64,000 nt of DNA from Elusimicrobiota bacterium (lineage in GTDB: Bacteria > Elusimicrobiota > Elusimicrobia > UBA1565 > UBA9628): positions 4,737 through 68,736 of the forward strand of contig DAIDHI010000033.1 in NCBI GenBank assembly GCA_027452025.1, in the 5' to 3' direction. The notes beneath the pieces are model-generated. The model had not been told where the DNA came from, did not search any database, and saw only the letters and a list, made by a program, of their open reading frames with translations. This document shows positions 23,747-28,267 of the stretch, piece by piece (the stretch's first letter is position 1; the number at the start of each line of letters is the position of its first letter). Made by a program: the position numbers and the translations under genes.

Positions 23747-24910
23747 ATGGACACGGGCACGCGCGTCAAGGTCATCCACGTCGTCACACGCCTGGACTTC
23801 GGGGGCGCCCAGCAGAACACCCTCTATACCTGCCGGCACCTCGACTCCTCGCGCTTCGACTGCGTGCTGGCCAGCGGGCCCGGCGGGACCTTGGCCCCCG
23901 AGTTGGCGGCCTCCCTGGGCCAGGCGCGCCGGGTCATCGTGCCCTCTTTGGGCAGGGAGATCAGCTTGGGCCGAGACCTCCTCGCCCTGCTCCAGCTGGT
24001 CAATCTCTTCCTCTCGGAGCGTCCCGACGTGGTGCATACTCACAGCTCCAAGGCCGGCATCTTGGGCCACCTCGCCGCGGCCGCGGTCGGCGTGCCCGTC
24101 GTAATGCACACCTACCACGGATTCGGCTTCAACGAATTCCAGCCCCCGCGGGTCAAGAGGCTCTATGTCTGGCTCGAGCGGCTGTGCGCGCGCCTGAGCA
24201 CGGCGATCGTGTTCGTGTCGCGCGCCAACCAGGACTACGCCCGTCGGCACGGCATCGGCGATCCGGCGCGCTGGCGCCTTCTGCACTCCGGAGTCGCACT
24301 GAGCCGCTATCCCGCGCGCGTGGAGGACCGCGGGCGCAAGAAAGCCCAGCTCGGCCTCGGCTTGCACAAGCCCGTGGTGACCACCATCGGCAACCTGAAG
24401 CCGCAGAAAAATCCCGGCGACTTCCTCGCGATGGCCCAGAAAGTCCTGGCCCGCAGGCCGGAGACGGAGTTCTATTTCGTCGGCGACGGGCCGCTGCGCG
24501 GGCGCATCGAGTGCCAGGCGATCGCCGCGGGCCTGTCCAACCGACTGCGGCTTCCGGGCTGGCGCATGGACGTCGACGAGATCCTTGCCGTGTCCGACGT
24601 CTTCGTGCTGACCTCGCTTTGGGAAGGACTGCCGCGGGCCCTGGTCGAGGCGATGAAGACCGGCCTGCCCTGCGTCTGCTACGCGACGGACGGCGTCACC
24701 GACATCGTCTCCGACGGCGTCAACGGCTTCTGCGTGCCCCAGGGCAACGTCTCCGAACTCGCTTCCCGGGTGCTGGCGCTGCTCGACGACGAGAGCCTGC
24801 GCCGCCGGCTGGGCGAGCAGGCCGCTCGATCGATCGGCCCCGAGTTCGACATCGACGAGATGGTGCGTGCGCAGGAGCGCCTCTATGGCGAGCTGCTCGC
24901 CGCCGTTTAA
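23747..24910 (+). CDS. Glycosyltransferase family 4 (GT-B fold)
   Basis: VIHVVTRLDFGGAQ N-terminus and the EX7E motif SLWEGLPRALVEAM. Confidence 0.8.
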   Translation: MDTGTRVKVIHVVTRLDFGGAQQNTLYTCRHLDSSRFDCVLASGPGGTLAPELAASLGQARRVIVPSLGREISLGRDLLALLQLVNLFLSERPDVVHTHSSKAGILGHLAAAAVGVPVVMHTYHGFGFNEFQPPRVKRLYVWLERLCARLSTAIVFVSRANQDYARRHGIGDPARWRLLHSGVALSRYPARVEDRGRKKAQLGLGLHKPVVTTIGNLKPQKNPGDFLAMAQKVLARRPETEFYFVGDGPLRGRIECQAIAAGLSNRLRLPGWRMDVDEILAVSDVFVLTSLWEGLPRALVEAMKTGLPCVCYATDGVTDIVSDGVNGFCVPQGNVSELASRVLALLDDESLRRRLGEQAARSIGPEFDIDEMVRAQERLYGELLAAV

Positions 24911-25781
24911 GAAGCCCCTGGGGCTGGTCTTGTCCGGCGGCGGCGCGCTGGCCGCCTGGCAGATCGGGGCTCTGGCCGAGCTCGAGGAGAGATTGGGCCC
25001 GGTCTTCGACGGCGCGATCGGCTTTTCCGCCGGGGCGCTCAACGCCGCGGCCTACGCCTTTGGGCGCCTTCCGGAGGCTCTCGAGCGGTGGACCGGCGCC
25101 GGGTTCGGATTTCTCCGGCCGTCGCCGCGGCTGCGGCCGCTGAGCTTGTTCTCCGATGCGCCCTTGCGGCGGGCCATCGAGTTCCTGCCCGAGGACGGCG
25201 CGGCTCGCAGCCAAATGCGCAGCCGGCTGGTCGTGGTCTCGGCGCGCTGCGATCGCGGCGGGCTCGTCCACGGGGTCTTCGAGCCCGGTCAGGGCCGCTG
25301 GGACGGCCCTTTGCGCGACCACCTGCTGGCCAGCTGCGCGATCCCGCGGGTGTTCCCTCCGGTGGCCCTGAACGTCGAAGGACGTCGGCTGGCGGCTTTC
25401 GACGGGGGGGTGCCCTGCGGAGAGCCAATGGCGCTCGCGGCCCTGGGGCGCTGCGAGGACGTGCTCGTCCTCGAGATGGTGCGCGAGGAGGAGCTGGCGG
25501 CCCGGCCGTTTTGGCCGTGGCAGCGGGTTCATCTGGAAAATAGGGCGATCTGCCGAAGGCTCATCGACGCGACTTTGTGCGCCGCTTTGTGCGCCGCCCG
25601 GGGGCCCCGGGTCTTCCGGCTGGCGCCCTCGCGCCGGCTCGAGTTCGAGATGCTTCATTTTCGGCGCTCCGCCATCCGCGGCGCGATCGAGCAGGGACGC
25701 CGCGACGCCGCCGCCCTGCTTGCCGAGCCCGCCCGTTTCGTTGCGTCGGAAGTCCGCGGACCCGACATCCGCTTCAAATGA
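24885..25781 (+). CDS. Patatin-like phospholipase
   Basis: Oxyanion GLVLSGGGALAAW, nucleophile GFSAG and catalytic Asp in AAFDGGV. ATG 24885 overlaps the GT4 3' end by 26 nt (alternative GTG at 24867). Confidence 0.8.
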   Translation: MASCSPPFKKPLGLVLSGGGALAAWQIGALAELEERLGPVFDGAIGFSAGALNAAAYAFGRLPEALERWTGAGFGFLRPSPRLRPLSLFSDAPLRRAIEFLPEDGAARSQMRSRLVVVSARCDRGGLVHGVFEPGQGRWDGPLRDHLLASCAIPRVFPPVALNVEGRRLAAFDGGVPCGEPMALAALGRCEDVLVLEMVREEELAARPFWPWQRVHLENRAICRRLIDATLCAALCAARGPRVFRLAPSRRLEFEMLHFRRSAIRGAIEQGRRDAAALLAEPARFVASEVRGPDIRFK

Positions 25782-25801: not shown

Positions 25802-25841
25802 AGCGGCAGCAGCCTTGCCGTCCGCGAGGAGATTCCCACAC

Positions 25842-27209
25842 ATGGCTCAATATAAGAAGATAAAGGTGCCCTCCGAGGGCGAAAAGATCGGCTTCAAGGA
25901 CGGAAAGCTCGTCGTTCCCGACCATCCCATCATCCCGTTTTTCCCCGGAGACGGCACCGGGCCCGATATCTGGAGAGCGACCAAGCTCGTCCTCGAAGGG
26001 GCCGTCGAGCGCGCCTATGAGGGCAAGAAGAAGATCGTCTGGATGGAGGTCTTCGCCGGCCTGACGGCGCTCAAGAACTACGACAAGGACACCGTTTTGC
26101 CCAAGGAGACTCTGGACGCGTTCAAGGAGTTCCGTGTCGGCATCAAAGGACCCCTGACCACGCCCGCCGGCCAATTCAAATTCGTCTGCCTCGACTGCGC
26201 CGCCGAGATGAATGACCGGCCCGCGCTGTGCCCGAAGTGCAAGAGCGAATGGATCACGCCGCGATTCCGCTCCGTCAACGTCGGCATCCGCCAGGCGCTC
26301 GACCTCTACGCCTGCGTGCGTCCGGTTCGCTGGTTCCAGGGCGTGCCGTGCCCCGTCAAGCACCCCGAAAAGTTCAACATCGTCATCTTCCGCGAGAACA
26401 CCGAGGATATCTACGCGGGCATCGAGTTCGAATACGGCACGAAGGACTGCCAGGAAGTCTACGACTTCCTGACCAAGAAGATGGGCAAGAAGATCCCGTT
26501 TGCCGACAGCGGCATCGGCATCAAGCCCATCTCGAAGACGGGCAGCCAGCGCCTGGTCCGCATGGCCATCCGCTACGCCATCGACCACAAGAAGCCGTCG
26601 GTGACTCTCGTGCACAAGGGCAACATCCAGAAGTTCACCGAGGGAGCTTTCCGCGACTGGGGCTACGAGGTGGCGAAGAGGGAGTTCCGCGATCAGATCG
26701 TGACCGAGGCGGAGCTGTGGGACAATCTCGGCGGCAAGATGCCGGCCGGCAAGGTCCTCGTCAAGGATCGCATCGCCGACCAGACGTTCCAGCAGCTGCT
26801 GCTGCGGCCCGACGAGTACAGCGTCCTCGCGACTCCCAACCTCAACGGCGATTATCTTTCCGACGCCGCCGTCGCCCAGGTGGGCGGCCTCGGCATCGGG
26901 CCCGGCGCCAACATCGGCGACGGCGTCGCCGTCTTCGAGGCGACGCACGGCACGGCGCCCAAATACACCAACAAGGACATGGTCAACCCGGGGTCGCTGA
27001 TCCTTTCGGGCGTGATGATGCTCGAGCACCTCGGCTGGCAGAAAGCCGCCGACATGGTCGTGAGCGCGCTCGAGCGGACCATCCAGGCCAAGACCGTCAC
27101 CTACGACTTCGAGCGCCAGATGGAAGGCGCCAAGAAGCTGAAGTGCTCGGAATTCGGCGCGGCCATCGTCGCCAACATGGGGGGGAGAGCTTTAGCGGCG
27201 GCCCGCTAG
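25842..27209 (+). CDS. icd: NADP-dependent isocitrate dehydrogenase with a zinc-ribbon-like insertion
   Basis: Collinear by eye with E. coli Icd ([67 protein letters not shown]). Carries about 30 extra residues with CxxC-x10-CxxC at aa 111-140. AGGAG SD before ATG 25842. Confidence 0.9.
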
Positions 27210-27230: not shown

Positions 27231-27265
27231 CGCCGTCCCATGGGCCGCGCGCCCATGGGACGGCG
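27231..27265. terminator. Perfect 15-bp GC-rich hairpin after icd (no U-tract)
   Basis: cgccgtcccatgggc pairs with gcccatgggacggcg around a 5-nt loop. It starts 22 nt after the icd stop and ends 12 nt before the GT2 ATG. Confidence 0.4.
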
Positions 27266-27277
27266 GCTTAACCGTCC

Positions 27278-28267
27278 ATGAGCCAATCGCCAGCAAAGCC
27301 AGTTCTCTCCGTCTTGATCCCCGTCTACAACGAGGAAGAGAATCTGCCGGCTCTCGGGGAAGAAGTGCACGCGGCCGTCAAGGACCTCGGCATGACGGCC
27401 GAGGTTATCCTCACCGACGACGGCTCCACGGACGGCTCCTACGAGCAGATCGTGGCGCTGACGCGCCGCTATCCGGAGTTCAAGGCCGTGCGCCTCGGGC
27501 GCAACGCCGGCCAGACCGCGGCCTTGTCGGCCGGCATCAAATATGCCGGCGGCGAGCTCATCGCGTGCCTGGACGCCGACTTGCAAAACGACCCGCGCGA
27601 CCTGGCCAAGCTCATCGGCAAGCTGCAGGAAGGCTACGACGTCGTCAGCGGCTGGCGCAAGGACCGCAAGGACGCGTGGCTCAACCGCCGGCTCCCGAGC
27701 CAAATAGCCAATTCCCTGATTTCCTGGATCACGGGCGTCCATCTCCACGATTACGGCTGCACGCTCAAGCTCTACCGCGCGCGCTACCTCAAGCCGCTGC
27801 GCCTTTACGGCGAGATGCACCGCTTCGTGCCGGCCTTCGCAGGATTTTTAGGGGCGCGCATCGCGGAGCTTCCCGTCAACCATAGGCCCCGGACCAAAGG
27901 GACCTCCAAGTACGGCATCTCCCGCACCTTCAAGGTGATCTTGGACCTGCTCACCGTTAAGTTCATGGACGCCTACATGGGCAAGCCCATCTACCTTTTC
28001 GGCGGAGGGGGCATCGTCATGGGGCTGCTCGGAGTGCTCATGGCGGCCGCGACGCTCTATAAAAAGTTTTTTCTCGGGATTTACGTCAAGGACCAGCCGC
28101 TTTTTCAGGTCTCGATCTTCTTCCTCCTGGTGGGCTTCCAGCTTATCCTGCTCGGCCTTCTCGCCGAGATATTGATTCGCGTCTATTTCGACATCAAGGA
28201 CAAGCCTTCGTACTTCGTGAGGGAAACGGCCGGTTTCGATCCCAAGTTGGCCGAGGTGCGGGGCTGA
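27278..28267 (+). CDS. GT2 polyprenol-phosphate glycosyltransferase (GtrB/ArnC/CsbB-like)
   Basis: LSVLIPVYNEEENL, DDGSTDGS and DADLQND motifs, plus two C-terminal TM helices as in GtrB/DPM1-like enzymes. Confidence 0.8.
   Translation: MSQSPAKPVLSVLIPVYNEEENLPALGEEVHAAVKDLGMTAEVILTDDGSTDGSYEQIVALTRRYPEFKAVRLGRNAGQTAALSAGIKYAGGELIACLDADLQNDPRDLAKLIGKLQEGYDVVSGWRKDRKDAWLNRRLPSQIANSLISWITGVHLHDYGCTLKLYRARYLKPLRLYGEMHRFVPAFAGFLGARIAELPVNHRPRTKGTSKYGISRTFKVILDLLTVKFMDAYMGKPIYLFGGGGIVMGLLGVLMAAATLYKKFFLGIYVKDQPLFQVSIFFLLVGFQLILLGLLAEILIRVYFDIKDKPSYFVRETAGFDPKLAEVRG

Follow-up and report, generated by a model that had tools for sequence, protein, structure and literature searches.

Isocitrate dehydrogenase (IDH) is among the best-studied of all enzymes, and its phosphorylation loop serves as a classic example of active-site regulation. 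In the IDH family, this loop has been recognised as a variable region, the 'Phos-loop', being longer and helical in the enzymes of subfamily II (PMC3521221). In the archaeal IDH of S. tokodaii, the turn equivalent to the insertion site described here is disordered in the apo form, and in the complexes the loop bridges nicotinamide adenine dinucleotide phosphate (NADP) and isocitrate (PMC6313988). The variability and flexibility of the Phos-loop therefore indicate a site that tolerates and uses embellishment. Here, we describe the icd gene for an NADP-dependent IDH of subfamily I found in a 64,000-nucleotide stretch of DNA from an Elusimicrobiota bacterium (contig DAIDHI010000033.1; the whole stretch analysed is referred to as the window), whose predicted product has in this loop a 30-residue insert with four cysteines (Cys4), absent from the solved IDHs and conserved in homologues.

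The icd gene is located on the + strand at 25842..27209 and encodes 455 amino acids plus the stop codon, an assignment based on the open reading frame (ORF), its translation, TIGR00183, Pfam and Foldseek. No RNA run containing the gene was listed. The open frame around it spans 25815..27209 (+), the ATG at 25842 being the start that matches the homologues. The insert (aa 111-140, 26172..26261, +) is part of the Cd or 'phosphorylation' loop, where it is flanked by the conserved motifs KGPLTTP.G and RFRS, and reads C116-x2-C119-x10-C130-x2-C133. As read codon by codon, it includes a first knuckle C116-L-D-C119 (26187..26198, +; cysteine codons 26187-26189 and 26196-26198) and a second knuckle C130-P-K-C133 (26229..26240, +; cysteine codons 26229-26231 and 26238-26240). 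The insert ends three residues ahead of R-S144, and its exit, T139-P-R141-F142-R143-S144 (26256..26273, +), of which T139, R141, F142, R143 and S144 are invariant, leads into the substrate-binding serine, the equivalent of E. coli Ser113, with the Ser144 codon at 26271-26273. In E. coli, the same site is occupied by the turn V-G-G-G-I-R-S113. The phmmer alignments to the E. coli (1ai2) and P. aeruginosa ICD (5m2e) structures are split into query residues 4-110 and 142-446, and among the 20 solved subfamily-I IDHs matched in a search of all PDB sequences, none has a counterpart to residues 111-141. The first-pass annotation of this DNA, made from the letters alone, had already noted a 30-residue insert directly before the conserved substrate serine; its coordinates were exact and both its extent and its placement are borne out.

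Apart from the insert, the enzyme is a standard member of its subfamily. The protein scores 639.4 bits on the model for the prokaryotic NADP-IDH (TIGR00183, curated cut-off 567.3) and 608.7 bits on NF005425 (cut-off 490), and matches Pfam Iso_dh with an E value of 1.9e-83. In a residue-by-residue alignment, the substrate, metal and catalytic set of E. coli (S113, N115, R119, R129, R153, Y160, K230, D283, D307 and D311) corresponds to S144, N146, R150, R160, R184, Y191, K259, D313, D337 and D341, and the NADP determinants (K344, Y345, V351, Y391 and R395) to K374, Y375, V381, Y421 and R425. Across 36 aligned sequences from the clade, all of these positions, including those for NADP specificity, show no variation or almost none. 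Because the TIGR00183 score is above the cut-off and all catalytic and NADP residues are aligned and conserved, the IDH is read as intact, in agreement with the earlier remark that the rest of the protein is collinear and its catalytic motifs preserved. The AlphaFold2 model of the whole protein has a mean predicted local distance difference test (pLDDT) of 88.5, and its best 30 Foldseek matches are all IDHs, including A. fulgidus IDH 2iv0 (E 7e-54, template modelling (TM) scores 0.85/0.94); on the A. fulgidus, B. subtilis and E. coli enzymes, the TM scores are 0.83-0.85 when normalised to the query and 0.89-0.94 when normalised to the target. The host genome is a 3.2-Mb metagenome-assembled genome (MAG), 94% complete, in which no second IDH at the TIGR00183 level was found, and the close homologues of the enzyme are labelled Elusimicrobia or Elusimicrobiota. 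The predicted activity is thus that of the organism's working subfamily-I NADP-isocitrate dehydrogenase. The same genome also contains a further Iso_dh-family gene of about 390 aa (L002:1468-2643, contig C47, - strand), which scores about 180 bits alike on the models for NAD-IDH, homoisocitrate dehydrogenase and isopropylmalate dehydrogenase, under every curated cut-off.

How widespread the insert is, a point that the first-pass annotation proposed to check by a multiple alignment, was assessed in two samples. The first includes the 120 best matches in a collection of 5.8 billion proteins, at 68-92% identity, of which 118 were readable by the loop pattern; all 118 have, bounded by T-P and R-S, a segment of 33-39 residues that contains exactly four cysteines. 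The second is a scan with an alignment of the insert only, which returned 67 independent loci in GTDB species representatives, a count that rests on one peptide pattern and is a lower bound. These loci are labelled Elusimicrobiota, candidate division KSB1, Caldithrix (Calditrichota), Cloacimonadota and Marinimicrobia/Neomarinimicrobiota, together with one Armatimonadia-labelled MAG, and the genomes returned are from uncultured organisms only (MAGs plus one Marinimicrobia record without a MAG label). A library of representatives at 50% identity, which lumps insert-bearing with insert-less IDHs and is weak on prevalence, yielded in addition a fragment (P0220) and a highly divergent homologue (P0126, 47-56% identity) in which a Cys4 insert likewise occupies this site.

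Across the insert-bearing homologues and loci, all four cysteines are invariant, and V115, L117, E122, R126-P127, S135, T139, R141 and F142 beside them are either invariant or almost so. The length of the insert changes only between the knuckles, where the spacing in relatives runs from x10 to x15. The CxxC-x10-CxxC spacing given in the first-pass annotation is right for the protein of the window; it corresponds to a short form, x14 being the majority spacing. In a region-restricted search, about 50 clusters had the x10 form, and every named cluster among them is labelled Elusimicrobia.

The pooled ratio of replacement to synonymous changes (pN/pS), from 15 fairly close pairs, is 0.166 in the insert and 0.141 in the rest of the gene, and this low value within the insert means that the segment is translated and under the same kind of constraint as the enzyme around it. 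The origin of the segment as an artefact, by a frameshift or in a decaying gene is refuted and has practically no chance of being correct, as the same in-frame segment is found in hundreds of independent assemblies and synonymous changes exceed replacement changes. On the sequence comparisons, chance is also excluded as the source of the four-cysteine pattern. The insert is confirmed as real, old and under purifying selection, and the description of the segment as a functional embellishment and not the mark of a pseudogene holds.

The fold of the insert was judged from the secondary structure and pLDDT of the models. In the full model, the insert has a pLDDT of 89-93, with strands at 114-116, 121-122 and 138-140, and this predicted pattern is that of a zinc ribbon with two knuckles and three strands. 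When it is folded alone with its flanks, from 28 sequences, the core has a pLDDT of 72-76 and the whole 63; the lower values alone than in context hint that the module leans on the enzyme body. The best Foldseek matches of the isolated insert are all Cys4 ribbons, among them the translation recovery factor Trf of S. solfataricus (6htj, root-mean-square deviation 1.1 Å over 29 columns, 38% identity), P. furiosus PF0610 (2gmg), ribosomal eL40, the rubredoxin-like domain of LapB, the reverse gyrase zinc finger, PhlB and Nob1. An all-against-all comparison with VIA-align gave 33 rows at Z 2.0-3.3, most of which we take to be Cys4 metal knuckles (Nob1, eL40, RNA polymerase subunits, MCM zinc fingers and Nop10). 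Among PDB entries, a profile of the insert marginally matches PF0610, rubredoxins, TFIIS/RPB9 and eL40, and a homologue in the protein collection (P0007) bears a precomputed label for PF23470, the Pfam family of the PF0610 rubredoxin-like zinc beta-ribbon. The likeness to a zinc ribbon or knuckle, first remarked from the cysteine spacing, is in this way supported by both the sequence and the predicted fold, with weak scores for the structural matches, and the four cysteines would most likely bind a single metal ion, putatively Zn(II).

The top-scoring matches of the insert profile, to C2H2 fingers (2i13, CTCF), were rejected as spurious, as they cover only a linker-like G-x-[KR]-P-x-K-C-x-x-C-G and are summed over tandem repeats. 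Weak matches of the profile (E 4.5e-5 to 7e-4) were also found elsewhere in Elusimicrobiota, in small ORFs (57-168 aa) of other genomes (G069:C6:10487-10582, G127:C243:1022-1108, G101:C5:86804-86914 and G148:C67:6652-6744), and these ORFs probably encode free-standing zinc-ribbon proteins.

Phylogenetic trees were built with the insert columns removed. In a quick tree, the 33 insert-bearing IDHs cluster with a Shimodaira-Hasegawa-like approximate likelihood ratio test (SH-aLRT) value of 94, and in an LG+C20 tree, a branch with support 98/92 separates 32 of the 33 from the rest. Forcing all 33 into one clade costs 0.96 log-likelihood units (approximately unbiased (AU) test, p 0.435), so that a single origin is not rejected. 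The divergent homologue P0126 lies on a long branch elsewhere in the tree, where its placement is impossible. Within phyla, the insert is patchy. Among the 201 sampled Elusimicrobiota genomes, seven have an insert-bearing IDH and three an insert-less IDH at the TIGR00183 level, while most of the others have only Iso_dh-family proteins of about 350-370 aa that fall under the TIGR00183 cut-off; of the 61 genomes from the phylum to which the Caldithrix MAG belongs, nine have the insert.

Another genus (g2) in the GTDB family of the window lacks an insert-bearing IDH and has instead an insert-less one, encoded in a conserved string of PEPCK, TPR protein, IDH and aconitase genes (G194 L071:139-6892; G178 L072:315-6787). 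Loss of the insert in place was considered for this genus and rejected: its IDH is at another locus and branches outside the insert clade, and for these two reasons it is read as a replacement and not as a deletion. Both kinds of IDH thus substitute for each other inside one bacterial family. Closest to the clade as a whole is an insert-less IDH from another Elusimicrobiota family (62-65% identity; G004, L073:2989-4233, contig C73), with a fumarate hydratase gene directly 3' of it. This enzyme either is the sister of the insert clade or has secondarily lost the ribbon, and in either case it provides a natural insert-less comparison for the insert-bearing IDHs.

Residues that accompany the insert elsewhere in the enzyme were searched for by contrasting 167 insert-bearing with 25 insert-less IDHs, retaining positions at which one residue reaches at least 90% in the first set and no more than 15% in the second. 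Six positions pass, R141, L74, L77, Q314, E424 and Q426. Arg141 replaces a glycine found in every insert-less IDH examined. Leu74 is found in 99% of the insert-bearing versus 4% of the insert-less enzymes, and Leu77 in 92% versus 12%; their E. coli equivalents are E72 and T75, and in the model they lie on helix 74-79 (L74-T-A-L77, 26061..26072, +). Both are also leucine in the distant P0126, with D and K in the G004 enzyme and E at position 74 in most other insert-less IDHs. This co-occurrence with the insert suggests that the helix is a candidate docking surface for the ribbon. Regarding the remaining positions, Q314 adjoins D313 (E. coli D283), a metal ligand that serves the active site of the other subunit in the dimer, and E424 and Q426 flank R425 (E. 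coli R395), the binder of the NADP 2'-phosphate.

Here it is proposed, with moderate confidence, that the module is a metal-stapled structural cap that rigidifies the active-site loop. In the proposed arrangement, the glycine-rich flexible turn of the Cd loop would be replaced by a small Cys4 knuckle of the zinc-ribbon or rubredoxin type, in which the metal ion would staple three short strands into a rigid mini-domain. Its conserved base (F/Y114, V115, L117, E122, W/F/Y137, T139, R141 and F142) would pack against helix 74-79 (L74, L77), with the hydrophobic residues F112, F/Y114, L117 and W/F/Y137 resting on the helix, and the variable tip between the knuckles would face the solvent. The module would be placed over the mouth of the cleft, close to the cofactor site and the partner subunit, where it would fix the position of Ser144 and Asn146, cap the cleft and tune the access of isocitrate and NADP, with no on/off switch. 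Three elements of this scheme are inferred: that the insert binds a metal, that it docks on helix 74-79, and that it caps the cleft or rigidifies the loop. The co-varying helix, the conserved ribbon base and the variable distal loop fit a structural cap at least as well as sensing or interaction roles.

Several observations weigh against the structural cap. The fold matches of the isolated insert are weak (Foldseek E >= 0.09, VIA Z <= 3.3), as the module has only about 30 residues, and the Pfam match to PF23470 reaches 22.4 bits, below the cut-off of 26, and covers only aa 127-143, around the second knuckle. Furthermore, relatives rely on insert-less IDHs, including genus g2 of the same GTDB family, and since these work well, the module is dispensable for catalysis.

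Control at this loop has also to be considered. In E. coli, the serine equivalent to Ser144 is the phosphorylation site of AceK, and the first-pass annotation had framed the insert with reference to it. A search for AceK (PF06315) was positive in the E. coli control but found no gene in the host genome (94% complete) or in five genomes from other phyla that encode the insert, and because none of these six genomes yielded the gene, control of the AceK type and the phosphorylation-site framing are inapplicable. This absence makes some other control at the loop conceivable, and the insert could be an analogue of AceK, namely a labile Zn(Cys)4 redox or metal switch, in which loss of the ion through oxidants or metal depletion would unfold the ribbon, displace Ser144 and Asn146 and lower or abolish the activity. 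The module ends three residues from the substrate-binding serine, and Cys4 zinc sites serve as redox switches in Hsp33 and RsrA, which both count for the switch. However, sequence cannot tell a labile from a structural site, and most zinc ribbons are structural; under oxidative stress a cell usually needs the NADPH that IDH makes, so that inactivation by oxidants would run against intuition; and no co-conserved gene of the thioredoxin or sensor type was found beside icd in the 67 loci. We regard the switch as unlikely, and as a little less likely still the wider claim that the Cys4 module is a reversible built-in switch by which uncultured, mostly anaerobic bacteria of several phyla would gate carbon flow at the isocitrate step without a kinase, at the residue phosphorylated in E. 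coli.

Another explanation is that the ribbon would be a handle for protein-protein docking, in a metabolon with aconitase and citrate synthase, with a regulator or in a higher-order IDH assembly. Contacts between macromolecules are often made through zinc ribbons, the tip of this one is hydrophilic and presumably exposed, and icd adjoins aconitase in 25 of the 67 loci and citrate synthase in 13, these tricarboxylic acid (TCA) cycle genes being its flanks in KSB1, Cloacimonadota and Marinimicrobia. Nevertheless, clustering of TCA genes is common with or without the insert, as in genus g2, whose insert-less IDH also adjoins aconitase, and the strongest conservation is in the ribbon's base rather than in its tip. 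No partner gene is conserved beside the insert-bearing icd in the 67 loci and no neighbour is specific to them, only TCA, TPR and glycosyltransferase genes varying by lineage, with glycosyltransferases as the neighbours in Elusimicrobia, so that a docking role is considered quite improbable. The likeness to rubredoxins raises the further option of a rubredoxin-type Fe(Cys)4 centre that would pass electrons as the C-terminal domain of rubrerythrin does. The x10-x14 spacing resembles the CxxC-x12-CxxC of rubrerythrin, VIA-align lists its Fe-binding C-terminal domain (9fj2, Z 3.2), and the insert profile matches rubredoxins weakly (E 0.08-0.17, the PDB rubredoxin matches ranging over E 0.08-0.98). 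Against an iron centre, IDH transfers a hydride to NADP and has no flavin for splitting electron pairs, and the Pfam Rubredoxin model gave no match in the protein even at E <= 1. Rubredoxins typically carry a glycine after the first knuckle, where the insert has A or S, and this contrast also counts against the iron centre, which we hold to be very improbable.

In the window, the icd gene is preceded by an ORF at 24867-25781 and followed by a gene at 27278-28267 whose homologues elsewhere match glycosyltransferase family 2 (GT2). A GC-rich palindrome (27233-27265) lies between icd and the GT2 gene, 24 nt past the icd stop and 12 nt ahead of the GT2-gene ATG (27278), with two 14-nt arms containing CCATGG, a central loop of about 5 nt and no T-tract after it.

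The first-pass annotation had described the insert as unfamiliar among IDHs. This stands insofar as no solved structure with the insert was found by the PDB sequence search or by Foldseek, and no published description of it was found in the full-text literature, subscription-only papers being outside the scope. It does not stand in the sense of a rarity, as the insert marks a large clade, being common to hundreds of enzymes from at least 5-6 poorly known phyla of mostly uncultured bacteria. The insert-bearing enzymes form an undescribed structural class of IDH, with a conserved module of putative metal knuckles in the loop, and the insert represents a second, independent evolutionary elaboration of the IDH phosphorylation loop. 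If the module is regulatory, it would be a new mode of control of the TCA cycle; if it is structural, it would be a domain insertion stabilising a catalytic loop.

When compared with known systems, the enzyme is closest to the homodimeric subfamily-I NADP-IDHs (E. coli 1ai2/3icd, 5m2e, 2iv0 and B. subtilis 1hqs), with which it shares 52-54% identity over aligned columns, the same fold, all substrate, metal, catalytic and NADP residues and, in many lineages, a TCA gene context. It differs from them in having a Cys4 module of 30-34 residues where they have a G-G-G turn before Ser113, and from the E. coli enzyme also in having leucine at both positions occupied there by E72 and T75. The subfamily-II IDHs (the eukaryotic IDH1/IDH2 type) likewise have an enlarged Phos-loop; however, theirs is a helical elongation without a metal site, in another subfamily with low identity to subfamily I. 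In the AceK-regulated IDH of E. coli, the same loop and the same serine are under the control of a separate kinase/phosphatase, whereas no homologue of it was found in the six insert-bearing genomes. With the known Cys4 ribbons (Trf 6htj, PF0610 2gmg/PF23470, eL40, the C-terminal domain of LapB, Nob1 and RPB12), the module shares two CxxC knuckles 10-14 residues apart and, as predicted, a three-stranded mini-sheet, a likeness that is generic and below the family thresholds; those ribbons are free-standing or terminal and mostly bind nucleic acids or proteins, whereas the one described here is placed inside an active-site loop.

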